From: Botryllus schlosseri
Taxonomy: Eukaryota
Assembly: GCA_051294905.1 (NCBI GenBank)
Contig: CM119371.1
Coordinates: 15,130,001-15,194,000 of the forward strand
Direction: 5' to 3'
DNA: 64,000 nt
In this document: in pieces, positions 19,657-51,647 of the stretch
Position numbering within the stretch: the first letter of the stretch is position 1
Layout: each line of letters begins with the position of its first letter
Program-made: the position numbers and the translations under genes
The notes under the pieces: generated by a model
What the model saw: the letters and a program-made list of their open reading frames with translations, nothing else
Told to the model about the DNA's origin: nothing
The model's database searches: none

Positions 19657-21276
19657 CTATACTCTCACCATTGCAGATCCTCGGGGTCCGAAAATAAAAG
19701 TCCAATAACCATAATCTTTTTTCAAGCTATACCATTTCTTGTTCAATATATCGTACTTCTCAATGTCATCGGAATCGTGATTACAATTCACCGCATAAAT
19801 CCAATTGCCGATGTGATAAACAGCATGGCCCTCATCACAAACATTCATAGATGGTAATGAAGACCACTGAGCTGATGTGACATCGTAACATTCTACATTG
19901 TTGATGAGCTCATTTCCACTCAAACCGCCGGTCACAAATATCTTTCGATCAACTGCAACAACACCACTATCACACACAGGATATCTCATCGGTTCAAGGT
20001 CAACCCACTCTGATGAGGATGGAGTGAATCTGCAGACTGCAGAAACCTGGAAATCCTCATCACCCCCTCCAATACAATACACAGAATCATCCAATGCCAC
20101 GTGACTTGCACCATAATCTGCTGCATGGTTGTTTTCCATTAGAAACCATCGATTTAAAGAAGGATCAAACCGTTCCACAGAATTTAGTTCCGGGTCGTAA
20201 CTTCCTCCGAGGACAAATATTGATCCACACAACGACACCGAGGAAGGATATGTACCATGGCGACATAACATATCTTCCATCCTTTGCCATTTTGAATTTT
20301 TTCTTCGAAAATTGAGTCGATGAACGGATCTATTCCCGCATAAAATGTAAACATATGACTCGAGAACGATGGTTGTAAAAGAATTAAAATGCTTAAACTT
20401 CGCATCGTGGAACCTCGTTATTTTCTCGGAAACCGGATTAAAAGATCGCATACAATCTGCTTCCAAATCTAAAAGAATTATCATTTCTTTTTTGTTGACC
20501 CGTTCAACTGATACTTCCAGGTAATGTCTGTGGATCAACGCATGTGACTTGGCATCATTCCTGATAATGGGATGAGTTTCTAGAAGATGCTGCAAAAATG
20601 TTGGTGAGATTCCGTCAAACTCTATCAATTCGAGACACTCATGCAAATATTCCTTCTTTTTTTGACATGTCTCAATCCACTTGAGCAATACCTTCAGTTT
20701 TTCTTCCTCCCACAAAATCGATTTCTCCGATTCCAAAACACTGATAATATCATTTTTGTCAACGTTACCGAATCCAGCTTGGTTTTCGATCTCTCTGATA
20801 TTTTCTTGTAGAAATTTTCTACACTCTGAAGAAATGTCATCGAGTCCATAAACATCAGCAACGTTTCTTGTAGAGAAATAATTCTCAACAGATATTGAAT
20901 CTACCAAGATTTCGCATATTGCATGCGTCAGATCTTCCAACTGCATAATGATTGCGACGTGAAGAAGTTCTATGATTTTTTCATCAGGAATCTCCAATTT
21001 ACTGAAATATATAAAATCGATGCAGTTTTTGACACATTCGGAGTCTACATCTTGAAGTACAACTCTATTTTCTTGACTTTCTTTCGTGTCATGCTTTAAC
21101 ATGGCTTTGAAGTAATCTGAACCAGCCGACATTATATTTTTGTGGGTGTGATAGGCATCATTTCCGACTTGAACTATGAAATCACAATGATCTTGATCTT
21201 GCTTCATTCGATATAATTCTTCCATCATCTTCACTGCACGTTTCTCTGTATCTTTAATAGCAATCGGCACCATCAT
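19657..21276 (-). CDS. BTB-BACK-Kelch protein, paralogue C
   Basis: Uninterrupted ORF with BTB, BACK and Kelch motifs; first ATG at 21276. Confidence 0.93.
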   Translation of the reverse strand: MMVPIAIKDTEKRAVKMMEELYRMKQDQDHCDFIVQVGNDAYHTHKNIMSAGSDYFKAMLKHDTKESQENRVVLQDVDSECVKNCIDFIYFSKLEIPDEKIIELLHVAIIMQLEDLTHAICEILVDSISVENYFSTRNVADVYGLDDISSECRKFLQENIREIENQAGFGNVDKNDIISVLESEKSILWEEEKLKVLLKWIETCQKKKEYLHECLELIEFDGISPTFLQHLLETHPIIRNDAKSHALIHRHYLEVSVERVNKKEMIILLDLEADCMRSFNPVSEKITRFHDAKFKHFNSFTTIVLESYVYILCGNRSVHRLNFRRKNSKWQRMEDMLCRHGTYPSSVSLCGSIFVLGGSYDPELNSVERFDPSLNRWFLMENNHAADYGASHVALDDSVYCIGGGDEDFQVSAVCRFTPSSSEWVDLEPMRYPVCDSGVVAVDRKIFVTGGLSGNELINNVECYDVTSAQWSSLPSMNVCDEGHAVYHIGNWIYAVNCNHDSDDIEKYDILNKKWYSLKKDYGYWTFIFGPRGSAMVRV

Positions 21277-21406
21277 CACCACCAACCAGTCTTCAAGGAT
21301 AAATAATAGTACAATCTAGGCTAAAATAGATATGCTGCAAAAGTAAAGATAGCAGATATTGAATCAATAGGAGTCAAAATACACACATAATTAATATCAC
21401 ATCCTT

Positions 21407-21517
21407 TCAGACTGGAACTATGAAATCGCAATGATCTTGATCTTGCTTCATCTGCTGTAACTCCTTCATCATACTAACTGCACGTTCCTTCACATGTTGC
21501 AAAACAATCTGCACCAT
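21407..21517 (-). pseudogene. 36-codon 5' fragment of a BTB-Kelch paralogue
   Basis: Translates MVQIVLQHVKERAVSMMKELQQMKQDQDHCDFIVPV*, homologous to the paralogue N-termini. Confidence 0.85.
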
Positions 21518-21619
21518 GATCAACAATGACGTGGAAACTATACAATATAGATAAGTACTGCTTCAAAATTAAATATACTTATGATGTTGACAGATGCTGA
21601 GTAATATTTATGACTAGAG

Positions 21620-23750
21620 TAATATTTACTCGAGTCACGATTTTCTGACGGTTTAACTTGACTATAGTCAGTTTCACAAAATACGCAAATGACTCGACTG
21701 TGGGTAAGTCCATGTCAAATCAACCGCACTCGTCACCACTAGGTCTCAGATTGCAATGAGAATGGAGGGGTAAATCTGGAATCCAGTTCTGACTGCAGTA
21801 AACTTAATTTTGTCAAAATTGGTCCACCCATCACAAAGTTATCGCATTTTAAAAAATGGCCATTTTGTGCTCACCCAGCCATGAAGTTCAATTACTTTTA
21901 CATTACCTGTTACAGTAACGTTTATAAAACAGCATAGTCAAGTACTTGAGAGTGGATTATGGTGTCTAATGATAGAATAGAAGAGATTCTTGCTACTGAA
22001 GGGAAAATTGTCACATAATCAAATGAGGTCAGGGGTTAAAACCCACCTCATAAAGTGACACTTTTCAAAATCGTTCATGCGTAACATGAACTTCAATTAT
22101 ATCCAGCGTAATTCTGTCTACACGAAAATTGGAAAGTAACATGTCATATGAAAGCTTGTTTGGAGAGGAACATGGCTGACATGTTTTGCTAACTAATATT
22201 TGACGGATGGTACCTCTAAATTAACTTTACATAAATACTTCTGAATCCATGGGGTAATTCAATTTGAGATTAATCAAAAGAGAGATTGGGTATCTCTTAA
22301 GTTTCAGATTTTGCTGAAATTTGGCTTATAACACCATGAAGTATATCCAAGTAAATATCAATTTGTTTTAAATGAATTACATAAGTAGTTTTCAAGTTAT
22401 TGCATGATAAAGAACAATCTTTTTATGCTCATCCATTCGTGAAATCCAAGTAATTTTTTAGGCTGATTTGAAATTTTCTGTAAATGGGCTATTTTGATAA
22501 TTAGAGAGTTGTTCTATTTGTTATGTTGTATAAAGTGATCTATTCTATCATGCAGGACAAAAATTACTGATTTTTAGTTGACATCTCAAAATGTAACTCA
22601 TTAACCCCAGAAACCACTGAAGCGTAACAACAATACTTCAGCGGTCTCTCTCTCGTTTCTGTCTGTTTCAAAATTTTTGTAAATGGTGTCATATGAAAGC
22701 TGTTAGAACAAAGAATTTCCAGAAAATGAGTAACATGCTGGAGTTTGTCTCAAGGTAACACGGCAACTAGAATATCGAACATCATTTTTTAGGAAAATCA
22801 CTACATTTTCATGACCTGAAATATACCCTGTTTTGAAAACTTTGTAAGTAAATATTACATAAAAACTTATTTTCTAAGGAATCTATGTTACATCAGCTTT
22901 CATTTGCCACCCTTCATAACTTTTTTCAAGTAGACAGAAATGAGAGGGAGACTCCTGAAATATTGTCATGCTTGAGTGATTTCCAGAGGTACCGTCTTTT
23001 ACCTTGAGCTAAATTCTGGGCCGTGCACCAAAAATCATTAATTTCGCACTTGAATGATAGAATAGATCAATTTACACAACATAACAAAGTGAACAACATT
23101 TCAGGGTCAAAGTAGCTCATTCACAGACAATTCCAAATATACTTAAAAACAGCCCTTCAATTTCACGGTTGAATGGGCATGAAAAGCCTGTTTTTCATCA
23201 TGCGATAACTTTGAAACTACTGAAGTAATTCATCTCAAATAAATTGTGATTTAGTGAGCTATACTTCATGATGTTTTGAGCCAAATTTCAGCAAAATCTG
23301 ACACTATGTGGTGACGAAATCCATTTTTTTGGTTGATCAGACATGGAATTACCCCTGTGTATTGACTCGACTTGGACTCAAGTCATTGCGCATGACTCGA
23401 ACCAAGTCATATGACTCGAGAATCATACGGCTAAGACCGACATTTCATTATAATGTCTGAGAATAGTAAAGTAACTGCACTATTGATATTTCGTCTATTG
23501 GTTTGGTACTGTACTTCAAAATTCGACCAAAACTGCTAAAAGTGAAAAAATTAGTATAAATGGGATCCCTTCGATATCGATAAACAGAGTTATAAAAGTG
23601 GGTGTAACAAGACGTTAACTGGGAGCTGAGCAGTCAACACAAGGACTTGACTCGGTTGTGAATTGAAAATGACTCGACTTGACTCGAGACAAAACTATAA
23701 AAGTGAGATTGACATGTGACTCGGAGTCTTCTGACTTGGTTACAACCCGG
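21620..23750. mobile_element. gactcgagtc-rich MITE interrupted by the 21702-23354 element
   Basis: Matches the uninterrupted copy at about 51923-52407 and a reverse-oriented relative at 41073-41576. Confidence 0.7.
21702..23354. mobile_element. Sola2-like non-autonomous DNA transposon with long internal inverted repeat
   Basis: Ends gggtaagtccatgtc / gacatggaattaccc, 4-bp TSD ctgt, absent from the duplicate (about 52005). Superfamily is tentative. Confidence 0.7.
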
Positions 23751-24867
23751 CTGTAACCTGGTACATAACAAATAACTGAACAGAAACTTGACAGTAACAT
23801 GCTCGGATGTTGGCTAGCACCTCCAGCATCCTCTGCAGACGGATGCTGTGCTAATCTGACGTTGAAGCAAGAAAGAAGCTCGATCGGTTAGGGGAACTCC
23901 CGAGTTTGTCTGTGGCTTAATCCCGCCAACTGATGGCGTTAATTTATCGTACCAGCGTCTTGCTTCAGAAAATTTACTTATTTCCCAGATACAATAGTTA
24001 CGACCGTTTTACTGGGTCGTATTGACTGCGATACAACGCGCGATATGGCTGAAAGAACGGTACCGTATGAAAGGAACCACGTAACCTGCTGCCAAAATTA
24101 TATAGACAGACACTTTCGTGAAAACGTATTTGTCATTCCATAATCCATATCTATTTCACGCGGAACACGACGAAATTTTGGGAATTTACTTAACTTTTGG
24201 GAGAAGTAAATAAGTGTTGGTATCCCACAATATCAGTCTCTAAATTCCATTACCTCGCTGTCTCCCTGACTCCCTCCCTCTCCCAAGCCTTGGTCATTAT
24301 TGATGGACCAAGGTTACATCGCTGTCGATGTGTCTGGCAGCACACTTCGTTTGTGCTACCGTGCATTACTCATCCTTGGTACTCAAGTAGAAGGGACGTC
24401 AAGAGTTTTCCCGTATAGTAAAAATAGAAGTAACGACGTTTAATTCAAATGTTGTCAAACAGGTGCAAGTGGAAGTAAAAAAATGATTATTAGAAAAATA
24501 ACCAATCAGGGCCTTGAGTACTGAAAAAAAATATTTGATTGAGTGCTCTATCTTAGCGAGGAGGAGGGTTCTTTCAAAATTACAGGGAATATCTTCACGA
24601 TTACCGGAAAATATCTACAAATCGCTGCAATTTTTAAAAATCACTATATTCCGTGATGCAGTCGCCATAGCCCAGTTGGTATTTTACTCATGGGAACATA
24701 CCGCAAAATTACAATCCACGTCACAAAATCTAAAATTCATACAATAGGTTTGTCTAGAAATTTAGTCGGCGAGGAGTCTAACATCACACGAACTTGAGTA
24801 CGGTAAGTGGTGCAATTGTGCAGATCCTAATTGAGTTCTCCCAAAAATTAGAAATAATGTGTTAGAC

Positions 24868-26138
24868 CAGAGGTGGTCAGTAACGAAGTACTTCTACTTT
24901 TTGGAAGTACTCAAGTAGTTTTCCACTACTTCTGGTACTTACTCAAGTAGATCTGATTTTCTCTACTTCTATTTCTACTTCATAATATTTTGCGATCTAC
25001 TTACTTCCTTTTCGCTATTTTCAGTTTGTCAAGTAGAAGTAGTTTAATTCCCAATACGAAAGATAGCCTGAAGGATTTCGGGGCTGTTTCCACGGAGTAC
25101 CAACATTTAATATTTATAAAAGTCAAGTAAAGTCCAGAAATTGTTTTGCGATTCGCGCACAGTAATTATGGGGTGACAAATATGTTTGTACGAAAGTATC
25201 AGTGAATATAATTTAGGTACCGGATTGCTTGATTCCGCTCTCATCGTATTGTCGCCCATATCAAATATTTCATCGCAGTAAATATGGCCCACCATAACGT
25301 TTAAAACAACCGTTTCGCAATCTAGCAATTCCCTATCATTTCGTAATTAACAGCCCGTGACGTGCCCTGCTAATCTGGAAAATCCGGCTTCTTTAAACGT
25401 TACACCTGTTTTAGCAGATCACCATTGAAGCTTTTGGACAAAAGGCATGAAATATATTTTCCGCTTTTTAGAAGTGGTTTTTGTATTTCACTTTCAATTC
25501 CGAGTATCATACTTAGAGTTCTGAATACTTGCAGTTATTTTGACTGTAGAACATACATGTTGAAGCATAAAAACAAGCGTAGTATTTTCCGAAAATGAAG
25601 TTACACTAAATATAACTTTTGCAATCCACACTATTTGTTTTTAACGTATACTAATCGGGCAAAGTGTTGAAACCGTATCCGATACAACTTCTCCGTATTG
25701 CTCTTCGCCTAAACCTGGGGCCTTATAATATGGGGTAGGGCGCCATGCCATGATATTCTCAAAAAAGGGGTCTTCTAGTAAACAAAGGGTTACTATCGCA
25801 TTTTTATATCAATAATATAATTTGAATCCCATGATGCGAAAGAATGCTTATTCTGTCGAATATTGATACCTCCTGGTATGCATCAATACAAATCAAGCTC
25901 TCTGCACCTTCCGCATAGCTCAATTTGCAGCTTTTGACAGTCCATGCGAACGAATTAAGACTGTTTTCAAAACTACTTACTTACTTGAGTAGATTTAAAG
26001 TAACTCAATTCCACTTCTACTTCAAGTAGTTTTAGGTGGCTTATGGAAGAAGTACTTCTACTCGTACTTGAGTAGATTTTTTCGTCGCTACTTCTACTTC
26101 TACTTGAGTAGCTTTCTTGACTACTTTGACCACCTCTG
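24868..26138. mobile_element. hAT-type non-autonomous element
   Basis: TIR cagaggtggtca / tgaccacctctg, aagta/tactt subterminal motifs, imperfect TSD (tgtgtta..), empty site at about 55810. Confidence 0.78.
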
Positions 26139-26402
26139 TGTGTTACTGACAATCTCTGCTTTAGAAGCTCCAATGCGTTGCAAGTGCAACTCCACGAAAT
26201 ATCTCGTACATCAAATTCCACACTTATAGACCGCCGTGAAAACGGAGTGATTTCTAAACTTCGCCACATTCGACTGAACAGCATGGCTGCAATATAGCCA
26301 TTTCAAATATAATTCATACCTAGCTTTTGTTAAACTCTGTTGAACCATAGACTTGGACGGACAACTAGAACATTTTTAGCTTTTCCAAATTAGTATACTG
26401 GC

Positions 26403-29400
26403 TAGGGTGGAGTGAAAATGACTTTTTTTTTTCAAATCAAAAAAGGGCTTCCTCAATCCTGACAAAAGACCTAAAACTTCAATAAAAAGTGACTTCAGGG
26501 TGTTGCCCCCATTTTCCAGCCGGCAACCCCCCAATTTCTGCGCGTGAGGGGGTAAAATGACCCATCTCGGCAACCGCTGGTCGTAGAGTCATGATATATA
26601 GCTCAAAATCTGCGGAAGCATCATGTTTCTATCTGTCTTCAGAAGAAAGTTTTCTCTATTGTGAACACAAAATGAGTTATAGCAAAAAAACAATATATAC
26701 GCACATTTTTGTTGAAATTCAGCATTTATTCTGACGAATTGTGATCTGTCATTAGTTTTTTTTTTAAAGAAAAGCAACACACTGACAATACCGAATATTG
26801 GGCCCATATTACAAGTATATTCACAACACAGTCCTTTTAAAATCGGTTCAAAACATCATAATGAAACACTGACATTTAACGACTTATTGAAAATGCATTC
26901 TTTTGTCAAGTTTTTTCATCAGTTTACGAGACTTAATTTTTCGGCGAATGAGGCCATCTCGTCTTTGAAATCCCGAAACTTGTGCTGATGCTTCTGTTAC
27001 GAGCTTTACATTTCGTTCCACTGTTTGATTGTTGCATGGATGAAACAAAATCAGAGGCTTCTCGCGGCATTCTTCAACTCTGCATCAGTTAAGTGCTCAA
27101 TCGCTTGAGGAAATTGTTGATATAAGGTTCAATATCAACCAACTCGTGGTATGCCTTTGCTTCCAAGTTCAACTTTGGGACACAGAATAAACGAACAGGA
27201 CCGCAGTTCAATTGGTTGGAACTGCTATGACTCTCAATGTCCAGGAGTGAATTTTATTAAGCGGCATGTTTTTGAATCGCCAGCACCTTGGTCACACCAA
27301 ATTGGAAAAAAACTACGTGGAAGTGTATCTTGTTGGCCAGTTACTCAATTCAAAAAGCTCTCGCCACCACTTATGGCCTTTCCAAAGCTCCCATCGGAAA
27401 TTGTTAGTGACTTAAGTAAGGACCAGTTATATGCTTATAAATGTGCTGGGTAATTATTCAAGGAAATGCTGATGATGATCTGGCTTACTTGGAGGTTGGA
27501 CCACGTGTTGCGCATTCAAGATGGCTAACTTTAGGATGCATTGCAGAGTTTTACGGTATTATGTAACAGTTGCTGAACCTCCTCTGAACCTGGAGATTCT
27601 GGTTCGTTTTTGCCTTGAAGTATATTTTCCGACTTGGTTTGAGATCAAGGGAAACAAACATATAACACATGGACCCAGAAACATCTTCAACTTGATTCAA
27701 CAGGTTTTGAATTTCTCTGACCGAAACCAGGGATATATAGAACTCCGGGATGGCTGACTTCATTTTGGCCTTTACCTAAGTAGGTCCAGAAAGTTACCTG
27801 CAATCTGCCTCGAAATATCCACTTTTCTGCAAGCTAGCGATACAGCTGTTTCTAGAATAATGATCCTCAACCTTTTGCAGAATAGTTAGTGAGTAAGCTA
27901 GACATTCTTCCCATATCACAACCTTACTGCTGTATAGCCAACCTAGTAAAGTATGACACTGCTGTATAGCCAACCAAGTAAACTATGACAACTCTGTATT
28001 TCAGTAAATCATGAATGTGTTTAATTTCTACACATCATATAATCTGCATCAGGCCATAAATAACAGTGAATATCGAATAATATCAGCGTCTTCTACCTAT
28101 TTACAAGCCATTGTCGGAAACCTTGCAGCTGGAAAGGGGGGGGGGGGTTATAGGATTGATTAAATCAACAGTTTCAATTCGCGTTAATCGACAATTACGA
28201 TGGAGTATAGGGTTGCATTTAAAACAAACATGATAAATCAAGGCCCTTGTATAAAACATCTTTTTTTAAGCCATGACGTCAAGAATATTCAATAGTGACG
28301 TCATATTGGATTGACATTGACAATTGTAAATATAGTGTAAATATAGCTCCTTTGACGAAATATCTGTGCTATTGCTGTTAAACCGACTATTTTGAGGGTT
28401 CCAGCCATCCCATATCGATATTAGTCCGCTATATCGGGTGGTAATCGTCCGTGAGCTCATACAACACGTGTTTTGGAAAGTATTTACACAATTATGGCAT
28501 AATTTTACAACTTAAAAAGAATTTTTTTCAAAAGGCCTTTGTTTAAAACACTGTTTAAAGCATGTTATAAACATGGCGTTTCAAACACCGTTTGTTTTAA
28601 ATGCACCCCTACCATGGAGCATTTACAATAACGAAAAGATAGCACGGCCTGTAAGGACTCGAAATTGTGATAGCAGCATTGTCACCTTCTATGTCACTCA
28701 ATGAAAGTTGATCAAGAAATCAGCACACCATTGATACTTCTCTTCAGGTTCAAATGCAGCTTCGGGGGGTGGACGTTTGGTACATATCAATATCAATTTG
28801 AGAAGCATTTGGTAGACCCAGTTGTTGAATTCAGCTGATATTTTGTTCACCAAGAAATAGTTTCATGACCGCAGTGAAGAAATTACCACCATGGCTTAAC
28901 GGTACATCATGAATGGGTCTCCTGAAGCATTTCATGCCATTTATCAGTTGAGAAATATTCAGTATCATTGTCTTGCAGATTTTCCGATTGAGCGATAGAT
29001 GATTCCATTTAAAAAACATCTCGGTGAGGAGGCACGAGATCCAAATATTCAGATTGTGGCCATCTTTGCCAAGATTTCAATGGGATGTGCCCAGTATAAT
29101 ATATTAGGATATCCACTGTTGACGTGATGCAAATGCTGGAACATCGCGTTTCTTTTTCCGGAATCTGCAACAAAAATGAACAAATGATGTATTTAGAGAC
29201 ACAAATTAACCTTAAGAATATATATATAGATGTATGCAGAGATGGTCAATAGTGAAGAACTTCTACTTCATTGCAGTACTCAAGTAGGTGCTGCCTATTT
29301 TCGAAGATACATCTTGTAAATTTGAAGCAGCCATCTCCAAACTCAAGTACCTTGCAAGCATTTCACTTTCTACAGCTACTTGAGGAAGTTCAAATACCAG

Positions 29401-31721: not shown

Positions 31722-32368
31722 AACTTGGCATTTCGCTCTGATTTAGTGACATTAGACAACTAGAATTATCTATTTGTCGGAGTCTGTGTTGAACAAATCG
31801 GTAATCTGTTAGATAGACATACATGCAGAACGCTGAGTTTGCTACAGAATTTTTTATTGTGGCTCCAAGCTCTGAAGTTGGTCAAAACGAAACGTGGGTA
31901 TACGACACATGGAATAAACGGTAAACACTTGAAACGATTAAGAGTCGATGACAAATATGGTCAGGATTATGAATTCGGATTCGCCGTTTTGATGAGGTTA
32001 GGTTTAAAGAGGTTGTTGGATAAGGGCTTGGTGTAGGGCTCGGTTTATTAGGCCAACAATATAACATAGCCAAGTCTTACTCGAAAACTGCTTCATTTCT
32101 GTTATTCTAACGATTTAAAATGTACTTTTACATGTACGACCTGAAAAACACCAATTTTGTCTAACAAATGAGATGTCATCTAGTATGCAATCAGATTGAA
32201 CGAAACACGATGTGATTTCAAATCCACAAAGAAATCAGTTTGAAGTTTTAGCACAACTAAAGTTATTCCATGCTCAATGAATATTAGTTACACAAAGGAT
32301 TTAGTTCATGTTGGAATATGCAACGTCTTCCTTGGAGAGGCACGGCATTCAGTTGAAGAATCAGTGAT

Positions 32369-39142: not shown

Positions 39143-40079
39143 GGTTGCCAGTAAACTCGCCCCAAAGTAAATTCGGCCCATCGAATTCGGCCCTCGGTCA
39201 CTTCGGCCCTCGGTAAATTCGGCCCTCGGTAAATTCGGCCAGGGCCAGAGTAACAACAACAGTTACAATACCATTATCTAACCTGAACCCTAACCCTAAT
39301 CCTAACCCTAATCCTAACCTAACCTAACCCTAACCTAACCCTAATCCTAACCGTAATCCTAACCTAACCCTAATCCTAACCCTAACCTTAATCCTAACCC
39401 TAACGCTAATCCTAACCCTAAACCTAACCCCTAACCTCCAAATCACTTGATAATATTATAATTATGTAATATACTCCACATTATTAGTTAGGTTAGGATT
39501 AGGGTTAGGTTAGGTTTAGGATTAAGCTAGAATTAGGGTTAGGATTAATGTTAGGGTTCAGTTCAGGTTAGATAATATTATAATTATGTATTATAATACA
39601 CGTTATTAGTTCGTAATAAAATTTCACACAATGTTCTCCGAGGGCCGAATATACCGATTGAATTCGGCCCCGTAAACATCGGCATATATATATACATATA
39701 TATATTTATACGCATACCCTGTTCTCCAAATCACTTGATAATAATATAATTATGAAATTAATTCACATTAATAGTTGGTAATACATTTTTATAAAAAATT
39801 CTCCGAGGGCAGAATTGACCGAGTAACCAGTGAATTGACCGGTGAATTCGGCCGTCGGTAAATTCGGTCCCCGTGAATATCCGCGCTATCTCCCGTGATT
39901 ACGCGATCGACGCATACCCTGACATCAAAATCACTTAATAATAGTATAATTATGTAATTAATTCATGTTAACGGTTGGTAATACGTTTTAATACAATATT
40001 CTCGGTGGGCCGAATTTACTGAGGTAATGGCCGAATTTGCCTGGGCCGAATTTACTTTGGGGCGAGTTTACTGGCAACC
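39143..40079. mobile_element. MITE (Merlin/MULE-like) containing telomere-like repeats
   Basis: About 38-bp near-perfect TIR starting ggttgccagtaaactcgccc, perfect 8-bp TSD gttctcct. Confidence 0.85.
39278..39571. repeat. Degenerate (CCCTAA/CCTAA)n tract followed by inverted (TTAGGG/TTAGG)n tract
   Basis: Direct reading: C-rich 39278-39437, G-rich about 39488-39571. Confidence 0.85.
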
Positions 40080-40481
40080 GTTCTCCTACTCAATGTTATT
40101 GTTTATTGTCGAGCGAGTGAGAGAGGGAGATAGAGATAAAGAGAGAATTCATTAGTTAATCAACCAGCGAGTAAATCAATGATTGCGGCATGGCTATGAT
40201 TACATCAACACAGTGAAAGCAAATATGATACCAAATATAGTATAGACGCTTAACTGATAAAACAGTTAATAACGGTTGAGGCACCGGAGAGCAGAGATGG
40301 TCTCATTTGCAAATTTCCGAATCCAACCGGCTCCGGCTTGCTATTTGAAATTCAGTGTCCGAAAAAGGCAAGAAAGACAGAAGAAGAAACGGGACAAAGC
40401 GACACACCACCACCTCCAGTAGCGATGAAAATAACGTCGATCAACGTTAACGGCTTGCACAAAGCACTGAACCCATTAGGA

Positions 40482-41983
40482 CAGTGGTTCCCAACCGGGG
40501 AGGAATTCCCCCCTTAGGGGGAATTTGGCAATTTTTAGGGAGGAATTCTACTTTAGAATTGTAACGGATTTCCCAAATTGTTCATGTCCGAACTGTCATG
40601 TAGTCAACCTGTTATATCCAAAAGTATGCTCCTTATGGCTGTTTTTTATTTGCTGAAAGTATGTTCAAATGCTATTTGAAATCTCTTTTTCACATACAAA
40701 TCCCCCCCCCTTTTTAAAAAAAAAATAGGTCAGATGTGCTGCAATTCGCAAGACAATTTTGTAGGCCAACGACGGCCTCTAAATCAAATATGTCCTAAGC
40801 GAGAAAATGTGCTGAATCTATCGCAGCAAGGCCTCTGGTGGAGGTAGCCTATTTATCTTACATTTTCAAGTCAACATTTTCAGACAATGACAAAATATTC
40901 CAACGTCATCGATTCAAGTCAAAGAGATCGCTAGCCTTGCTTTATTTTTAGTGAACAACTTCCCGATCGAAAAAAGACATGTTAAACTTGGTGCAGTGTT
41001 GCCGAAGCGTAACGGGTGTCCTGAATTTCAATGGAATCCAGTAGGAAATCTAATCACGTGTATGTTATACATCAGGGCTGTAACCAAGTTACGAGGCTCC
41101 GAGTCACAAGTCAATCTCACTTTCATAGTTTTGACTCGAGTCAAGTCGAGTCATATTCAATTCACCATTGAGTCAAGCCCTAGTCCAGGTCACCGAGCAG
41201 AGGGTCGAGTCCGAGTCATGGTATTATGACTCGAGTCCGAGTCCAAGTCACACTCATGTCAACACTGGTTGGTGATATTGAATGATTTGGAATTGTGATA
41301 TACTAATTTTCCTCACTTTGAGCTGTTTGTTGTCGCATTGTCAAGTACCAGGATCAATAGACGAAATTCCAACAGGGTGGTCACTTTACTGTTCTTCGAA
41401 ATTACAATGAAATGTCGGTCTTGGCCATTTTATAGTCTCGAGTCATATGGCTTGGTCCGAGTCATGTAGAATGACTCGAGTCCAAGTCGAGTTAATACCC
41501 AGATTGTCTTGAATCGAGTCGTTTCCGTATATCAGAAAATGGTGACTCGAGTCACACTCGAGTCTGGTCAACCCTGTTATGCATGGAAGTACAAATATTA
41601 TTGGCCAAATGCATACGCAAACTTGAGAAAAAAATCGCGAGACCAGTAAATTTATAGATACTGATTTTTCACAGCAGTTATATTAGCGATTGGTACACGG
41701 TAAGCCGGAAACACAAATGAAAGTGTGGGGGTCTGTTGAGTCAAGCCTTCCAGAATTTGTTTGATTGGGACCAAGACCATTGTTTTTGGAGGTTTACAAA
41801 GTGTTATTACAGCACTGCTAGAAGCAAACACTTGGTACCGCCCGTCTTATTCTCTCAGTCAACAGTTGTTTGCGCGGTAAAAATGATCTTTTTTAATCAT
41901 CGGGCAGATTTATCCTAAGGGGGGAATTTTGGCTTAAATTTCGGCCAAGGGAGGCACGAGATGAAAAAGGTTGGGAACCACTG
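40482..41983. mobile_element. hAT (Charlie-like) MITE inside LINE ORF2
   Basis: TIR cagtggttcccaacc / ggttgggaaccactg; perfect 8-bp TSD cattagga. Confidence 0.9.
41073..41576. mobile_element. Nested gactcgagtc-rich hAT-type MITE
   Basis: Ends cagggctg / caaccctg; TSD ttatacat / ttatgcat. Confidence 0.8.
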
Positions 41984-44900
41984 CATTAGGAGATTATATA
42001 GAAGCGACAGATCCCGATATGCTCTTAATTCAAGAAACTCATAGAATTAGAGAAACAGAGATTCAAGAATGGGCGCAAAGAATTGGTTACAAAATCTACA
42101 CTAACGCAAAAGGAGGATATTCAATCAGATGGAAGGGGACAGCCATCATGATAAAGAAGCACCTTCAAGGTAAAATTTACGACCATCAGATTTTAATCGA
42201 AAATCGGGCCCAATCAATCCTGATACGTCTGGACAGCTCCCCTACAGATATGATCAATATAATAAATGTGTATGCGCCTGCTGGAAACGGCGGCCCGGCA
42301 AAAATTGATAAAGTTAACTTTTTCGCCCAAATGGAACTCGAATTGGAAAGGATGGACTTTTCTATAATAATGGGAGGGGATTTTAACGTAATTCTGAACA
42401 AAAAAGATGTCAAACGAAAGGACACATATGAAATGGGTCCAGATGCTAAGCAACTAGAAAAGATAATATGCGAAAACGGAATGATTGACTGCTTCAGAAA
42501 TAAACACTCGAGCTCCGAATACTATACGTATTCCCGAGTAGATAATGTGTAACGGATCGGTGTAATGATCTATGTAACGGAAGAATTGAGTGAATTCATT
42601 AAAAGCGCAGGACACGATCAAAACAATGTCGCAGACCATCATAGTCCGCACATTAAATTAGACTTTAGCGACAAGACTAAGCGCCAGCCGCAGAACTGGA
42701 AATGCAACAACGAACTATTGCTCGACAATGTCTATGTTGATATAATTAACAACTTGATTGCCACACGCGAGGCAAGCCTCGATGGAGCGCAAAGTCTACA
42801 ACATTGGTGGGACAATTTGAAAATAGACATAGCAAACACGAGCAAAAGGTACCAACTCGATAAGCGAAAACAAGACGCTAATAAGACAGATATAAGATCG
42901 AGCCAAGAGAAACTCAGAATAATAACAAAAACCGATACCTCCGAAGAAGGAAGGGGGAACTTTAGAACTTTCTGGTCTAAGATCAAAGCGAGAAAGAAAA
43001 AGGCAGAGCTCAAATACATCGAGCTCGACAACGGTACGATAACAGAAGACCCCAACAAATTATGTGATGCAGTAACCAGTTTTTACAGAGCACTATGGCA
43101 AAAAAGGCATGAAGCAACAAAAGCGATGAGAACTGAATACCTGAGCGACTATCATGCTACACCCAAAAAACAGACGCCGGATGAAATCGACACGGTAACG
43201 AGAATCGAACTATGGTACACGCTCAAGCAGACGAACAAAGAACGGTCACCGGGACCAGACGGTTTGACGTTTGAATTTTATATTAAGTTTTGGAATGCAA
43301 TAAGTACGAAACTATGCCAAATAGTGAACAATGGAATCTTTTTTGCAAATCAACCTGAAAGCTGGGATCACGCAAAAGTAATACTTATACACAAAGGAAA
43401 ATAAAAAACAAAATTAGAAAACTGGAGACCCATATCACTACTTAATACTGATTACAAGCTTTTTGCCAAGGTACTCAATAAAAGACTGCTGCAGGAAGTG
43501 GACGGAAAAATCCAAACCACTCAAAAAGCCGCAATCCCGGGACGGAACATCGATACCATTCATAATAACGTGAGTGCTATAACAAGATACCATATTGAAA
43601 AGAATATCCAAGGCTATATACTTACCATAGACTACAAAAAAGCCTTTGACAAAATTGACCATGCAATGATGTTTGATATCCTGGCCAAACTTGATATATC
43701 CCCCAAAATAAGAAAAGCAATTGAGAGGATATACAGCCATCCATACGTACAGATCGAATCGACTGGAATTACGACACCTCATATTCAAATCCAACGAGGT
43801 ATTCGCCAGGGCTGTCCCCTAAGCATGACACTGTACGCTGTCTGCGCGGACCCACTTGCAAAGAAAATTAGGGCAAACAAAGAAATAAAAGGCATCAATA
43901 TTGCCGGATTCGAACAAAAACTGGACCAATTTGCCGACGACACTACCTATTATATAAGTAACATCGAGTCGATAACGCGAATACTTTCTGAGCATCACAG
44001 GGTTCGGGAAGCAACGGGGCAGGAACTGAACATTCCAAAGACGGCGATTCTACCTCTAAATCCAAGATCAAGGGTTATACTCCAGAATTCCAGCCACAAC
44101 AACAAAGCCAGGGACAATATCAATATACTAGGGATAACGCATGGTAAGAACGCGGCAAATATTAACTACGAAGATCTCCTTAACAGAATCCAACGTGACT
44201 GCCACATTATAAAAGGACAACGCCTGACCTGGATGGGAAAAATTACAGCAATGAAGGCTAAGATTGTCCCAAAAGCAACGTATACCCTGCAGACGGCTAC
44301 GGTGACGTCCCACCAGCTCAAAACACTCGACAGGATGCTATTCCAACTGCTATGGTGCCCGGAAAAACTGGAAGCGAAGAGCCGGAACACCCTCATAAAG
44401 AAAAAAATGTATGGAGGTATTGACATGATAGATATAGATTCGCATATAAAAGCAAAGAAATTCAAACGAATGAAAATTTTGAGTGAACTCGATAAACCCA
44501 AAGAAATATGGCACCAAGAAGCCTTGTACAACCTTGGTAGCAAAGTAATTAATGTGAACCACCATGCATACAATAACAGTATGCCTCACAGACCAACGCC
44601 GAGTACGACATATCGCGAGGAACTCGAAACGTACTACAAAATACGCAACGGAAATGACGACGACATGGTTTGCTCACAAAGAGAAGTATATAGTAAATTG
44701 GTAGACCTAAAGACGGAACCAAACTATGAAAACAAAAACTGGGAGAAAATCTGGCTAATTACACGCGATACAGGAAACATATTTACAAATATGGAAAAAA
44801 TTATATCGTATCGAATACTAAACGAAGCATATTTCACAGGAAATAAAAAGGAAAAAGCAAACTGGATCAAGTCCGGACAAAAAATGCTGAAGACAAAATG

Positions 44901-47034
44901 CAAACTGTGCGGCACCGAAAAAGACACCCTATATCATATGTACGTCGAATGCAATATGTACAAAACTATATTTTTTGTCATCAGGGAAATCATCGAAAAC
45001 ACCGTTCGAAGCGACATAGACGCCACGGAGAAAGAAATCTACGACAACAGTTACGACGGACCAAACAAGATTGTGGTACTGAAGGCCTACACCATCGCCA
45101 AACTCGAGATATGGAAATCAAAACGTCAACTTGATATTGCGAATGAATATGCCACGAAAGACCGAATACGGGCCATAACCAACAGCATATCGAAGAAATT
45201 GGGCGAGGAATTACGCAAACTATTGAACAACACGCGATAAGCCTGAAGGCGACGCAAATAACCGCTTTACACGCGATCGCAAAATCTAGTTAATATCCTG
45301 AAATATGACTATGCATATCTCCAATTTCCCGCGTATATATGAAATGCATATTGTATAGTCATTCCATATACATGTACCAATATGAATATTTATTTTTACG
45401 CCTTTTTTTTTCCTTTTCCATATGTAAATAAAACTGCCATTTCGTGTGTTTTACTACCCCCCCCCCATACCCCTCCCCGGAAATATCATATCCCATATAC
45501 CCCAACAGCGGCTCCACCAACACCACACCCTACCAAAACCACCCAATAGGAGATATCGTCATCCTAGAAATGAGAAAATTACCAGGGTCACCATAAACTA
45601 AAATGTACGGTAGGTAATTGGGAACATAAATATTGAAAATATCATAATTACGATGATTGGTAAATTTCTAAAAATGGACAAACCCAGAACATGGAAAATT
45701 ATTGAGAAATAAATATGACTGAAAATATGAGTTCAATTTCGTCACGCTCCAATAACACCCTAAAGACTATAAACCCAAAGACCATTTAAATATAAAAAGA
45801 ATGGTGCAGGCGTATAAGACTTGAGATCTTAAGTTCAGCCATCCAGGATTCAAATAGGCACGCACTATATTTCTTCTTTATTTACTTTTGGTTATTATGC
45901 TTTATCATGCACTTTGAAATAAAATCACTAAAGAGAAAAATTTTGGATGAAGGGTTTTTAGAGTCCAAAAAAGGCCGTCTGACATCATACTAATTTCTCA
46001 TACTTCAGTGGAAAATCCTGCTAATCTTCTACTTTCAATGCGAAATCACAATCCGGATCTACACTCCTGCGTACAGACTTATGGACAACTAGAAAATTTT
46101 CAGCTTTTCCAAATTGGATCAGAATTAGATTACTGGCACTTCGCTCTAATTTAGTGCAATTAGACTACAATTATCCAGTTACCCAAGTCTGCCTGCGTGC
46201 TTTTGTCTTTCTGATTCGATTTTGATTGTTTGAAGTTCTTTTGTAATTTTACCATTCCACAAGCTAAAATGTTGAGCACCACTATCATCACCAAGGCAAA
46301 CTCTTCAGTCAGCTTTAAGCCTTGCCAACTCTAACCTGGCATGTGTACATGTATATGTAAATATTTCATTGTGAAAGCCCTGTTCACGGACACATCGACA
46401 GGAGTTCAACAGAAACCGTGATCGCAGAGTTGCAATTTATTATGAAACATTGAAATTGCTTGGAAGACTGGTGTTAGGAAAAGATTAGGCAAAGAAACGT
46501 TATATACAAATCTTTCAAACACTCTGAAAGTGATTTCTATATCATTAATAACAATCTACTACGGCCCATACAAAGTGATATATGATATAAGTCGGAAGTC
46601 ATCAAAACGAAGTACTTAATATTTTTGAAGAACTCATGTAGGTTCTCTCAATGTGCACTACTCATCCAAACGGTGATGTTTTCAAGACCAATCTTACTTT
46701 ACAAGTATTGGGGTAAAACTATACTTCGCTGGTACGTTATGAAATATTTCAGCTAGTTTTGTGATGAGTTTGCAAAGCTTCTGTGGGTGTGATTATCTTA
46801 GGCCTAGAAGTAGCCCGTGTAATCGTAGGTAAATCTTCATCAATTTCAAGTGTCATCAGTCATTTTAAGCATTCGAAGATACATTTAAAAATTACAACCC
46901 ATCTCGACTTAATGAACCTTTTCAAGTTAATTTGAATAATCGTAGTGCTGATATGTCGAAAATGGGCAGAGTGTAAATTTGTGGTGTGATCTCTGATGGA
47001 CCAGTAACGCGGACAACTTTTACCAGCTCGATGA

Positions 47035-48681
47035 CTATACCTTAACCATTACAGTTCCGCATACACAAAATGACGGACCTGCATTCAAACGAATGTCATA
47101 ACATTCCTTCTTCGATAAATCGTACTTCTCAATATTATCTGAAAGGCCACACTCATCTACTGCATAAATCCAGTTGCCAATTAGATATGTAGTAGTCCAA
47201 CCACGACAACGAATCATTGGTGGCAACGAAGTCCACTGTGCTGAAAGAACATCATAACATTCAACAGTATTAATAGCGTCTCCTTCACTCCAACCACCGC
47301 TCACAAATATTCTTTGATCAACTGCAACAACACCACAGTCATCAAGCGGATATCTCATTGGCTCGAGGTCAACCCACACTGATGACGATGGACTGAATCT
47401 GCAGAATGAAGTAACAAAATTGCCATCCTCCCCTTTACCTCCGATACAGTAGATGTAATCGTTCAATGATACGAGACCTGCATCAGAAATCACTGTAGGT
47501 TTGTTCTCCAGTTGGAACCATTGATTTACAGATGCGTCGAATCTTTCCACGTCCCTGGTTGTTGTAAGATAACTGCCACCGATAACGAATATGCATCCGG
47601 ATGAACAAACAGAGTGAGGAAAGACACCATGGTCACAAATCATACTGTCTGTGTTTTCCCATTTTGAATTTTTGCAATGAAAGTGGAGTCGAAAAACAGA
47701 TTTAGTCTCGCATAGAACGTAAATATACGAGTCGCATGAAATTGCAGTGAAATTCAACGAGGACTGAAACTTCGCTTCGTGGAACATTTCTATTTGCTCG
47801 GTTACTGGATTGAAGGATCGGAGGCATTCTCCTTCCCGATCAAAAAGAATAATCAATTCAGAAGCAGCATTTTCTTCTTGTGCCTTGTTAGAAGCATTCA
47901 AAATATATCCAGCAATTATCTTGTACAATTCATAATCTTTGCTTATAAGGGGTTGAGTTTGTAAAACATGTTGCAAATACGCTGGAGATATTTTATCAAA
48001 GTGGATCACTTTGAGACCTTCGTGCAAATATTCCCCTTTACTGTGGCATTTGTCGATCCACTTGAGTAATAACATAAGTTTTTCTTCTTCCCATAATTTG
48101 GATTTTCCCGACTTCAAAAGACCGAGAAGTTCATCTTTTTCCACGCTCCCGAATCCAGCTCGGTTTGCGATTTCCATGATATTTTCTTGTAGAAATTCTC
48201 TGCAATCTGAAGACACACCTACCAGTCCATAAATATCACCAACATTTCTTGTAGAGAAGTAATTTTCAGTGGTAATTGATTCAATCAAAATATCGGATAT
48301 CGCATCCTTTACATCTTCTAACTGCATCATGATTGCGACGTGAAGAAGTTCGAGCATTTTGCCATCAGGAATCTCAAATTTGCTTGAATATATGAAATTG
48401 ATGCAACTTTTCACACACTCGGAATCTACATCTTCTAATACAGTTCTTCCTTTGCGACTCTCTTTTGTATCATGCTTCAGCATAGCTTTGAAATAATCCG
48501 AACCTGCTGACAATATATTTCTGTGGGTGTGATAGACATCATTCCCGACTTGAACTATGAAATCACAATGATCTTGATCTTGCTTCATTCGATATAATTC
48601 CTCCATCATCTTCACTGCACGTTTCTCTACACGTTTAATAGCAACCTGCACCATGATCATCACCAACCAGTCTTCAAGCAT
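47035..48681 (-). CDS. BTB-BACK-Kelch protein, paralogue B' (recent duplicate of B)
   Basis: Uninterrupted ORF, highly similar to 16692-18317. Homologous ATGs at 48660 and 48654, plus an extra in-frame ATG at 48681. Confidence 0.93.
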   Translation of the reverse strand: MLEDWLVMIMVQVAIKRVEKRAVKMMEELYRMKQDQDHCDFIVQVGNDVYHTHRNILSAGSDYFKAMLKHDTKESRKGRTVLEDVDSECVKSCINFIYSSKFEIPDGKMLELLHVAIMMQLEDVKDAISDILIESITTENYFSTRNVGDIYGLVGVSSDCREFLQENIMEIANRAGFGSVEKDELLGLLKSGKSKLWEEEKLMLLLKWIDKCHSKGEYLHEGLKVIHFDKISPAYLQHVLQTQPLISKDYELYKIIAGYILNASNKAQEENAASELIILFDREGECLRSFNPVTEQIEMFHEAKFQSSLNFTAISCDSYIYVLCETKSVFRLHFHCKNSKWENTDSMICDHGVFPHSVCSSGCIFVIGGSYLTTTRDVERFDASVNQWFQLENKPTVISDAGLVSLNDYIYCIGGKGEDGNFVTSFCRFSPSSSVWVDLEPMRYPLDDCGVVAVDQRIFVSGGWSEGDAINTVECYDVLSAQWTSLPPMIRCRGWTTTYLIGNWIYAVDECGLSDNIEKYDLSKKECYDIRLNAGPSFCVCGTVMVKV

Positions 48682-50015
48682 AAATAATAGCACTATCTAG
48701 GCTACATTAGATGTACCATACTGCAAAAGTAGAGATAGCCGATATTGAATCACTAGGAGTCAAAATACAGACATAATTGTTATCACACAAATACCAGCAT
48801 TGACAAAATGCAGATAACCAATTGCATTAACATTGATTGATAATGTCACGAACAGGGCAGGTTGGTTAGAACTGCTACACATCTTACCCCAGTGTACCGA
48901 CAATGTGTCTAAACTTCAAATAAGACCTGTTAGTGATAAATTATCAGGGCAAAAAAAATTATCAACTTACATGAATTCAACACAATTTATTATCAACAAT
49001 CTCAACATGTCAATACACCAGAAGACTGCGATACAAGTAGATAGTAAGGTGTCGAAACGACATTGAGAATTCTTTGAAATCAGACACCCACCAATCCTAG
49101 GCGATGCAAAATACTAAATGGTTGACGTGCTAATAAAAGCAAAATGCATGTGTTAGGAAGTGGTAAGTAAAATCAATGATGAAAGAAAAGACTGGCTAGG
49201 CAGGTTAGCATATCAAATCACAAAATTCATATCCAACTTGCCTTTTATTTGTCAATTTCTTACTTACAAAAATATCAGCTAGTAGTTTGAATGAAACCGA
49301 ATGTGTGTTGAATGACAATAATATTCCAATTCAATTTATTAAAAACAATTTCATCATTTAATACACCACGATACTGCGATACAATGCAAAAATAGGATTT
49401 TGTCGAAACGACTTGGAGTAATCTTTCAGACACTAACCTGTACTAGGCGATGTGTAGGAGGTGTGTATACTGAATAAAAAGTAGATGCAGGTAATAAAAA
49501 AGGAAAGGTAATGACAATCACAATGTATAACTCAAAACAAGTTTACTTCAGACCCACACGCGATTGAAACATTTTTTTCAAATTTGCCATTACAAATTCA
49601 TAATTTTATCACTCAACTGAGCCCCGGCACACAGTCATCTGTCTTTTACTCGCTACCAATGTTCCCTCGAAGCTGCGCATTGCGCAGTGCTTTCACGGTC
49701 TTGGCGCACAGGAAATCCAAGTTGCGCACAAAAAATCCAAAGTGATGAACTTTTTTGTCGTTACGCACTGTTTTCCAAGAGTCTGCGCAGTGAGTTGGTG
49801 AGTGTGCGCAGACTCGTCAAAAATTAGATGGAACATTGCTTGCTACCCAACCATTATTTAACAACAAATATATATGTAAGATCACTTTGATGTCGCAGCA
49901 CAGCAGAAACTTACTCGAATCTCGAGAATGCATGCTTAAACATTATTCAAAGAGGTTTTCAGTCAACGCTAGAATATCACATATTCTCAAGAGCCCTCAG
50001 TTAAGTACCACTGAT

Positions 50016-51647
50016 CTATACTCTCACCATTGCAGATCCTCGGAGTACGAAAGTCAAAGTCCCATAACCATAATCATTTTCTTCTTTTTTCAAGCTATAC
50101 CATTTCTTGTTCAATATATCGTACTTCTCAATGTCATCAGAATCGTGATACCAATTCACCGCATAAATCCAATTGCTGATGTGATAAACAGCATGGCCCT
50201 CATCACAAACATTCATAGATGGTAATGAAGACCACTGAGCTGATGTGACATCGTAACATTCTACATTGTTGATGAGCTCCTTTCCACTCAAACCGCCGGT
50301 CACAAAAATCTTTCGATCAACTGCAACGACACCACTATCACACACAGGATATCTCATCGGTTCAAGGTCAACCCACTCTGATGAGGATGGAGTGAATCTG
50401 CAGAATGCGGAAACCTGGAAATTCTCATCACCACCTCCAATACAATACACGGAATCGTCCAATGACACGTGACTTGCACCATAATCTGCTGCATGGTTGT
50501 TTTCCATTAGAAACCATCGATTTAAAGAAGGATCAAACCGTTCCACAAAATTTAGTTCAGGGTCGTAACTTCCTCCGAGGACAAATATTGATCCACACAA
50601 CGACACCGAGGAAGGATATGTACCATGGCGACATAACATATCTTCCATCCTTTGCCATTTTGAATTTTTTCTTCGAAAATTGAGTCGATGAACGGATCTA
50701 TTCTCGCATAAAATGTAAACATATGACTCGAGAACGATGGTTGTAAAAGATTTAAAATGCGCAAACTTCGCATCGTGGAACCTCGCTATTTTCTCGGAAA
50801 CCGGATTAAAAGATCGCATACAATCTGCGTGCAAATCAAAAAGAATTATCATTTCTTTTTTGTTGACCGGTTCAACTGATACGTCCAGGTAATGTCTGTG
50901 GATCAACTCAAGTGACTTGGCATCATTCCTGATAATGGGATGAGTTTCTAGAAGATGCTGCAAAAATGTTGGTGAGATTCCGTCAAACTCTATCAATTCG
51001 AGACACTCATGCAAATATTCCTTCTTTTTTTGACATGTCTCAATCCACTTGAGCAATACCTTCAGTTTTTCTTCCTCCCACAAAATCGATTTCTCCGATT
51101 CCAAAACACTGATAATATCATTTTTGTCAACGCTACCGAATCCAGCTTGGTTTTCGATCTCTCTGATATTTTCTTGTAGAAATTCTCTACACACTGAAGA
51201 AATGTCATCGATTCCATAAACATCAGCAACGTTTCTTGTAGAGAAATAATTCTCAACAGATATTGAATCTACCAAGATTTCACATATTGCATGCGTCAGA
51301 TCTTCTAACTGCATAATGATTGCAACGTGAAGAAGTTCAATGATTTTTTCATCAGGAATCTCAAATTTACTGAAATATATAAAATCGATGCAGTTTTTGA
51401 CACATTCGGAGTCTACATCTTGAAGTACAACTCTATTTTCTTGACTTTCTTTCGTATCATGTTTTAACATGGCTTCGAAATAATCTGAACCAGCCGATAT
51501 TATATTTTTGTGGGTGTGATAGACATCATTTCCGACTTGAACTATGAAATCACAATGATCTTGATCTTGCTTCATTCGATATAATTCCTCCATCATCTTC
51601 ACTGCACGCTTCTCTGTATCTTTAATAGCAACCGGCACCATCATCAT
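50016..51647 (-). CDS. BTB-BACK-Kelch protein, paralogue C' (recent duplicate of C)
   Basis: Uninterrupted ORF, highly similar to 19657-21276; first ATG at 51647. Confidence 0.93.
   Translation of the reverse strand: MMMVPVAIKDTEKRAVKMMEELYRMKQDQDHCDFIVQVGNDVYHTHKNIISAGSDYFEAMLKHDTKESQENRVVLQDVDSECVKNCIDFIYFSKFEIPDEKIIELLHVAIIMQLEDLTHAICEILVDSISVENYFSTRNVADVYGIDDISSVCREFLQENIREIENQAGFGSVDKNDIISVLESEKSILWEEEKLKVLLKWIETCQKKKEYLHECLELIEFDGISPTFLQHLLETHPIIRNDAKSLELIHRHYLDVSVEPVNKKEMIILFDLHADCMRSFNPVSEKIARFHDAKFAHFKSFTTIVLESYVYILCENRSVHRLNFRRKNSKWQRMEDMLCRHGTYPSSVSLCGSIFVLGGSYDPELNFVERFDPSLNRWFLMENNHAADYGASHVSLDDSVYCIGGGDENFQVSAFCRFTPSSSEWVDLEPMRYPVCDSGVVAVDRKIFVTGGLSGKELINNVECYDVTSAQWSSLPSMNVCDEGHAVYHISNWIYAVNWYHDSDDIEKYDILNKKWYSLKKEENDYGYGTLTFVLRGSAMVRV

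Follow-up and report, generated by a model that had tools for sequence, protein, structure and literature searches.

A 64,000-nucleotide stretch of the Botryllus schlosseri genome (NCBI GenBank assembly GCA_051294905.1, contig CM119371.1, positions 15,130,001 to 15,194,000 of the forward strand; the whole stretch is hereafter called the window) carries a tandem array of minus-strand BTB-BACK-Kelch genes, comprising seven copies and the start of an eighth, whose coding regions are uninterrupted. The array itself, the duplication of a block within it, two broken copies, the mosaic structure of the copies and a gradient in the ratio of non-synonymous to synonymous substitution rates (dN/dS) from the protein scaffold to the predicted binding pocket are established. 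The explanation towards which we lean, with modest confidence, is that these genes form a birth-and-death family with predicted substrate-binding loops, in which positive selection acts on pocket sites for new or changing targets; that positive selection has acted is likely, short of proven. KLHL proteins have so far been known chiefly as single-copy, stable adaptors whose pocket is conserved.

Organization and mosaic structure of the array

The members of the array, which belong to three classes (A, B and C), and the two copies of the duplicated block are as follows.

Gene A, 1544 to 3136, minus strand: intact paralogue, mosaic relative to A' (open reading frame (ORF) list, Pfam, divergence scan)
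Gene B, 16692 to 18317, minus strand: intact paralogue, 5' conversion tract shared with C (ORF list, Pfam)
Gene C, 19657 to 21276, minus strand: intact ORF of 539 amino acids, coding region without an intron (ORF list, Pfam, AlphaFold2, Foldseek)
Gene A', 32369 to 33972, minus strand: full length, with a frameshift (one base missing near 33870, codon 35)
Gene B', 47035 to 48681, minus strand: intact recent duplicate of B, 3.7% divergence, with a W>C replacement of an almost invariant tryptophan in strand D (C position 515)
Gene C', 50016 to 51647, minus strand: intact recent duplicate of C, 543 amino acids, 3.1% nucleotide divergence, last DA loop longer by 9 bp
A'', 56660 to 57464, minus strand: Kelch-only fragment with the 5' half missing and an in-frame TGA, its 5' side abutting retrotransposon sequence
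5' fragment of a further family member, 21398 to 21523, minus strand: about 42 codons, upstream of C
Start of the eighth member, 1 to 15, minus strand: runs off the left edge; its upstream region resembles that of A'
B-C-A block, first copy (genes B, C and A'), 16003 to 33173, no strand assigned: contains extra insertions (self-BLAST)
B-C-A block, second copy (genes B', C' and A''), 46350 to 57464, no strand assigned: pieces 88-95% identical to the first copy, ending within A'' (self-BLAST)

Two of the seven copies, A' and A'', are broken and five are intact. Judging by its frameshift, A' is likely a pseudogene; the missing base may instead be a sequencing error. The similarity between the two blocks ends sharply on both sides (16003/46350 and 33173/57464), and the DNA that follows is unrelated. 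The window contains no N, and its GC content is 36-43% outside one retrotransposon. The copies are clustered, with recent gains and losses: the 64 kb hold the seven copies, two of them broken, together with a fragment, a further start and a duplicated block. Between classes A, B and C the five long ORFs stay open at about 60% mutual protein identity. A pyrimidine-rich, acceptor-like CAG, read by eye, lies about 30-70 bases 5' of the ATG in A, A', B, B', C and C', so that the genes need not be retrocopies.

The copies are recombinant mosaics. B and C share 90% identity in codons 2-45 against 73% in codons 46-262, which delimits a conversion tract, and the divergence between A and A' is 11% before C-codon ~400 and 33% after it (likelihood-ratio statistic 90); one of A and A' therefore has a different half comprising blades 4-6 of the Kelch propeller. 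Across this pair BTB, BACK and blades 1-3 are about 89% alike and blades 4-6 are 67% alike, as in a propeller-half exchange near C-codon 400.

Domain architecture, predicted fold and loop map

Pfam BTB, BACK and Kelch_1 were all found above cut-off in each of the six ORFs scanned. In C, BTB extends over residues ~1-126, BACK over 127-235, a linker helix over 236-263 and a six-blade propeller over 264-539. The AlphaFold2 model of C, built from a 66-row alignment, has a mean predicted local distance difference test score (pLDDT) of 92.3, a predicted template modelling score of 0.63 and 24 propeller strands; together with Foldseek it gives six four-stranded blades from E264 to E538, blade 1 being closed by the C-terminal strand. 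The best Foldseek match of the model is KBTBD2; the search returned KBTBD2-CUL3 complexes and the propellers of KLHL12 and KEAP1, with TM scores of 0.82-0.85 by target (KBTBD2-CUL3 complexes, KLHL12 propeller). Strands and loops had been set from Kelch motif anchors before the model was made, and the strand limits of the model then matched them. Faces were assigned by topology, the substrate face (top) of the Kelch propeller being made up of the BC and DA loops according to extracts of PMC3597819 and PMC6720452. The loops of C on which the following analysis draws are listed below.

Blade-1 BC loop, substrate face (residues 271-275), 20452 to 20466, minus strand: 271 has high dN/dS, 272 differs between C and C'
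DA loop between blades 1 and 2 (290-299), 20380 to 20409, minus strand: 295 and 298 differ between C and C'; 298 is a pocket position with high dN/dS
Blade-4 BC loop (405-413), 20038 to 20064, minus strand: 405 and 408 have high dN/dS; sequencing run X5 has D406G
Blade-6 BC loop (498-504), 19765 to 19785, minus strand: C-N-H in C, W-Y-H in C', W-L-N in one X5 contig
Closing DA loop (519-533), 19678 to 19722, minus strand: 9-bp indel and five substitutions

Model confidence is lowest in the closing DA loop, where pLDDT drops below 50 at 523-525. In KLHL11 the Cul3 contact is made by the alpha3-beta4 loop through a hydrophobic-x-Glu motif, F130-S131-E132, according to extracts of PMC3597819; the corresponding Glu66 is retained in 56 of the 66 aligned rows, and at the hydrophobic position 30 rows have Thr and 11 have Asn. 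Helices are predicted at 133-143 and 146-163 in the 3-box region of C. By homology, the family proteins are predicted to be substrate adaptors of Cul3 ubiquitin ligases.

Substitution rates and site models

Codon models were fitted to the seven copies, with broken codons treated as missing, using our own code, whose M0 log-likelihood (lnL) of -6270.03 equals that of IQ-TREE; after the recombination scan, separate branch lengths were allowed for each recombinant segment. Estimates of dN/dS for all seven copies (with those for the five intact copies in brackets) are 0.23 (0.20) in BTB, 0.30 (0.26) in BACK and 0.89 (1.04) in the linker, and within the propeller 0.26 (0.26) in strands, 0.40 (0.35) in bottom loops and 0.89 (0.80) in substrate-face loops, which thus evolve about three times faster than the strands. 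The initial annotation of this DNA, made from the letters alone, had placed the variable sites on the top face of the propeller, and this is borne out by the comparison of top with bottom loops (likelihood-ratio test (LRT) statistic 21.9 for seven copies and 16.7 for the five intact ones). The synonymous rate of the top loops against that of the remaining propeller is 1.09 versus 0.96 (p = 0.50, seven copies), and 1.32 versus 0.93 (p = 0.12) for the intact copies without ambiguous loops. The linker helix (20487 to 20571, C residues 236-263 and their equivalents) carries four replacements and no silent change between C and C', and five non-synonymous changes and no silent one between B and B'.

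Under standard models a class of sites with dN/dS above 1 is seen in the Kelch domain only, BTB and BACK being under purifying selection. On one tree, the comparison of M1a with M2a gives p = 0.005 for all codons, p = 0.0024 for Kelch and an LRT statistic of 0 for the non-Kelch part, and that of M8a with M8 gives p = 0.0001 for Kelch. When Kelch is divided into two segments, M1a versus M2a yields p = 0.0025, or p = 0.0098 without ambiguous loops and p = 0.0096 for the intact five; when double mutations are allowed, p = 0.012, with p = 0.0096 for the top loops alone and an LRT statistic of 0 for strands and bottom loops. Among the 11 sites with a naive-Bayes posterior of at least 0.9, which on seven sequences is a rough measure, 10 lie in BC or DA loops and one in the linker.

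The predicted binding pocket

The pocket residues of K13 in Table 3 of PMC6650413, as given in extracts of that paper, recur with the spacing p, p+1, p+17. The first two were taken to be DA-loop positions and the third to be the residue that directly follows the GG motif, and the scheme was carried over to C as 18 positions (271, 298/299, 315, 342/343, 359, 388/389, 405, 435/436, 452, 481/482, 498 and 532/533), the two in blade 1 being placed by analogy. In the seven copies these positions have a dN/dS of 1.6 (p = 0.014 against 1), compared with 0.72 at the remaining top-loop sites and 0.28 elsewhere, and their dN/dS is higher than that of random top-loop sites (permutation p = 0.0024). C and C' differ at two of the 18, B and B' at one, and classes A, B and C at most of them. 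BC loops are variable among human KLHL paralogues too, as extracts of PMC3597819 describe.

Differences within recent pairs

The differences quoted in the initial annotation are all present: between C and C', L269F and E272H (GAA/CAC), K295A (AAG/GCG) and N298K, C498W and N499Y, and at the C-terminus an in-frame 9-bp indel before D521 followed by W525G, F527L, I528T, G530V and P531L; between A' and A'', GSGCFHQ/GSGSFDK. Overall, 51 of the 1620 bases aligned between C and C' are different, and 32 of the 539 codons encode different amino acids; B and B' differ at 60 of 1626 bases, and A' and A'' at 25 of 804, with 5-13% divergence in paired flanks.

Two kinds of change that had been offered as signs of diversifying selection do not bear that weight. 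Codons with multiple hits occur at chance frequency (2 versus 1.48 expected for C/C', 3 versus 2.10 for B/B', 0 versus 0.68 for A'/A''), and the double-mutation rate fitted in codon models is small (0.004-0.017); a multi-nucleotide excess as evidence of selection was accordingly rejected for all three pairs. The GAA/CAC difference at codon 272 is likely an ancestral GAC with one single change in each lineage, to which the paralogues and the letters in three other sequencing runs point (among the variant rows listed; see below). As to the in-frame indel, which lies in a loop, it is the only one in some 4 kb of coding sequence compared between pairs, versus 3-6 per 0.35-1.3 kb of paired flank; this is purifying selection against indels.

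The clustering of changes in Kelch loops held for the substrate-face loops of the C/C' pair and failed for B/B' and A'/A''. Between C and C', 13 of 103 substrate-face BC/DA positions are changed versus 6 of 173 other Kelch positions (p = 0.006); with borders adjusted by DSSP the counts are 12/98 versus 7/178 (p = 0.013), and without loop 519-533 they are 8/88 versus 6/173 (p = 0.08). Between A' and A'', both broken, no clustering is seen (9/99 versus 12/167, p = 0.64), and 19 of the 36 amino-acid changes between B and B' lie outside the Kelch domain. The pooled intact pairs have 21 changes at 204 substrate-face positions versus 15 at 346 others (p = 0.011).

Pairwise dN/dS was computed with a kappa of 2. 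A higher dN/dS in Kelch than in BTB, which the initial annotation had anticipated, is found in C/C' (0.88, with 21 non-synonymous and 8 synonymous changes, versus 0.15, with 5 and 9; Fisher p = 0.044; all non-Kelch 0.44, 13 and 9) but is reversed in B/B' (Kelch 0.44, 17 and 13; BTB 0.99, 10 and 3). Kelch compared with all non-Kelch sequence gives no significant difference for C/C' (p = 0.38) or for the pooled pairs (0.60 versus 0.53, p = 1.0), and whole-domain contrasts therefore lend no support to the annotation. The dN/dS of 2.4 for A'/A'' (21 non-synonymous, 3 synonymous) was rejected as a sign of selection (p = 0.24 against neutrality, both copies being broken). The idea that C alone is the derived copy was likewise rejected, polarisation by the paralogues assigning 13 non-synonymous and 6 synonymous changes to C, 14 and 8 to C', and 7 and 3 to neither.

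Other samples, expression and relatives

Reads or contigs from four of 24 sequencing runs were compared with C only; the variant rows, of which 40 of 183 are listed, cover just the sites at which other samples depart from C, and contig depth was not taken as copy number. In run X5, 26 translated variant letters affect 24 codons, of which 17 match C' and 7-8 are new among the variant rows listed; the new replacements there fall at 394, 406, 496, 499 and 500, plus 520 at the edge of the indel, with silent changes at 392 and 522. The third blade-6 loop haplotype, W-L-N, comes from one X5 contig of depth 83. Runs X5 and X6 both carry the 9-base longer form at the C/C' indel site, and between C and the longest C-type contig of each run there are 32 differences in 1269 bases (X5) and 29 in 1103 bases (X6), a divergence of 2.5-2.6%. 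X6, which bears a different organism label, shares with X5 over 19560-21380 the same 9-bp long form and a 1-bp deletion at 19643, and it is as close to C as X5 is; it may be a sister species, a hybrid or a mislabel. In run X3, up to 53 contigs carry a variant letter at one conserved site, which suggests many related sequences, paralogues and alleles together.

In the RNA run X24, of which about 6% was read, 117 reads match C, all of them only in part and 111 at under 95% likeness, so relatives appear to be transcribed. The nearest named relatives are Styela clava models automatically named 'kelch-like protein 12/38/30/11', at 25-30% identity; the closest by sequence also include the Logan proteins P0001 (50%), P0026 (43%) and P0027 (40%), and protein searches returned no relative above 50% identity. 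Most close relatives share the M-L-x-H-D/E-T/N-x-E loop. An atlas search returned generic BTB-Kelch clusters only.

Other sequence features of the window

The window also holds repeats and mobile elements, given here with strand where one was assigned.

26403 to 31721: 5.3-kb insertion with ~900-bp inverted ends 90% identical, enclosing just one ORF of at least 100 amino acids; in the first block only, absent from the second
42019 to 45240, plus strand: non-LTR (long terminal repeat) retrotransposon in three ORF pieces, the last with a Pfam RVT_1 and a weak zf-RVT match
57465 to 60835, minus strand: fragmented LTR-type retrotransposon directly adjoining A'', RVT_1 match at 58014-58805, which we take to be Ty3/gypsy-like; no long repeat was found within 52000-64000
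52885 to 53032 and 54719 to 54873: arrays built on CCGACT, with higher-order units of 36-42 bp, close to the ends of an insertion in the second block, possibly subterminal repeats of a non-autonomous element
22251 to 23355: inverted repeat pair of ~490 bp, 73% identical, related to 41068-41502 and resembling a miniature inverted-repeat transposable element
4886 to 5381, 8491 to 9114, 14549 to 14678 and 39278 to 39558: tandem repeats (71, 143-162 and 24 bp), with facing CTAACC/GTTAGG telomere-like tracts
6278 to 7317, minus strand: two short ORFs, by eye pieces of a long interspersed nuclear element reverse transcriptase; 6278-6805 has no Pfam match

Discussion

The proteins of the array share their domain order and blade-1 closure with the KLHL/KBTBD adaptors of Cul3 (KBTBD2, KLHL12, KEAP1, KLHL20 and KLHL11), as these are described in extracts of PMC3597819 and PMC6720452, and differ from the human KLHL/KBTBD proteins in their tandem multicopy arrangement, their coding region without an intron and an identity of about 20%. 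No surface is more variable here than the pocket, which in extracts of PMC6650413 is the most conserved patch among orthologues of K13, KEAP1, KLHL2, KLHL3 and KLHL12; the variability of the array thus inverts the conservation reported for KEAP1/KLHL, the comparison being between orthologues there and between paralogous copies here. Similar in evolutionary behaviour are the nematode F-box and MATH-BTB adaptors, for which extracts of PMC4334554 and PMC1866355 describe birth-and-death expansions and strong positive selection. Clustering, unstable copy number, a conserved cullin-binding part and a fast substrate-binding part are common to both systems, whereas the array has a Kelch propeller and a chordate host, and the signal of positive selection in its seven copies is moderate and depends on the model; an immune role is indirect for the nematode proteins in those extracts and would be putative here. 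No paper on such an array in tunicates appeared among the literature-search results listed, and the supplementary gene-family tables of tunicate genome papers may list the expansion.

By homology, each copy would dimerise through BTB and dock on Cul3 through BTB and the 3-box, and its propeller pocket would present bound substrates for ubiquitylation. Copies would be generated by unequal crossing-over, and conversion or recombination would exchange 5' ends and propeller halves; point changes would retune the pocket on a fixed scaffold, and broken copies would drop out. Positive selection would then act on the smaller part of the pocket sites, amounting to about 7% of Kelch codons with a dN/dS of about 3-4.

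Recombination, rate variation and polymorphism inflate dN/dS tests of this kind. Several results weigh against positive selection on the pocket. Only seven sequences, two of them broken, enter the codon models. The mean dN/dS of the substrate-face loops is not above 1 (0.89, p = 0.26), and the linker helix, which is not a known binding face, is as fast as these loops (0.89-1.04). The M1a versus M2a comparison falls to p = 0.099 for the intact five without ambiguous loops and to p = 0.20 without A; a dN/dS > 1 class has p = 0.070 under independent synonymous-rate variation (top loops only, 0.052) and p = 0.55 under a joint rate multiplier (top loops only, 0.089), and the null model with joint rates gives a better fit (lnL -3436.8) than M2a does when rates do not vary (-3438.4). 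The pocket set was chosen after the site list had been seen. Its dN/dS drops to 1.26 (p = 0.30) when only the five intact copies are fitted and to 1.31 (p = 0.21) when A is removed, and when the pocket was given its own synonymous rate, all six fits were non-significant. The B/B' pair, left out of the initial annotation, has no clustering (8/101 versus 9/173, p = 0.44). The divergence between samples (2.5-2.6%) is close to that of C/C' (3.1%), so that pair differences may include polymorphism; no full-length match to C was found among the 117 X24 reads from the ~6% of the run; and the Cul3-contact loop of the family reads T-K-E against F-S-E in KLHL11, Thr replacing a large hydrophobic residue. 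Of the diversifying selection that the initial annotation proposed for the substrate face, the top-loop enrichment survives; the Kelch-only class with dN/dS above 1 appears in standard models and is lost under rate variation and when A, or the broken copies together with ambiguous loops, are dropped.

Much of this would follow if constraint were relaxed, the fold being kept while substrate-face loops without a fixed partner drift near neutrality and an apparent dN/dS above 1 arises from rate variation, leftover recombination, loop misalignment and the two pseudogenes. That account, which we regard as possible and distinctly less probable than selection on the pocket, agrees with the top-loop dN/dS of 0.80-0.89, the disappearance of the signal under joint rate variation and, at the pocket, on intact copies, the equally fast linker, the recombination present and the variability of BC loops among all KLHL paralogues in extracts of PMC3597819; however, the top-loop synonymous rate is not raised in the seven-copy fit, the fastest sites sit at pocket positions and not loop-wide, the signal persists with two-segment trees and without both broken copies, and the five long ORFs have been kept open. 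It is improbable that A, B and C diverged once for different endogenous substrates and are now conserved, with pair differences being mostly polymorphism: C/C' changes are still concentrated in the top loops, X5 adds replacements at 406, 499, 500 and 520, and births, breakage and recombination of copies are ongoing, even though pocket differences are few within pairs and many between classes, C-type contigs of other samples are only 2.5-2.6% from C and the Kelch dN/dS of B/B' is 0.44. Least probable, and compatible with the other readings, is an assembly artefact in which both haplotypes of a single locus were set side by side as the two B-C-A blocks, making C and C' alleles. The pair divergence of 3.1-3.7% is close to that between samples, and single long X5 contigs cover the C-specific stretches, though contigs drop variants; against this stand the sharp block ends with unrelated DNA beyond and the absence of N, and the older divergence among A, B and C, which bears most of the signal, would be unaffected.

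If relaxed constraint is the cause, the array is an ordinary lineage-specific expansion. If positive selection on pocket sites is the correct explanation, a Kelch propeller can act as an evolvable recognition surface in a chordate, as has been proposed for the nematode F-box and MATH-BTB proteins, and C/C' and A/A', the latter with different blades 4-6 on an almost identical scaffold, would be natural pairs for relating pocket residues to substrate choice. A bolder and more doubtful extension is that KLHL-type Cul3 adaptors form a recognition repertoire, dozens strong, inside the cells of an invertebrate chordate, marking viral, parasite or transposon proteins for destruction and diversified by positive selection on the pocket and the swapping of propeller halves; were this true, the family would be the chordate counterpart, with a Kelch propeller, of F-box/MATH-BTB surveillance in nematodes.

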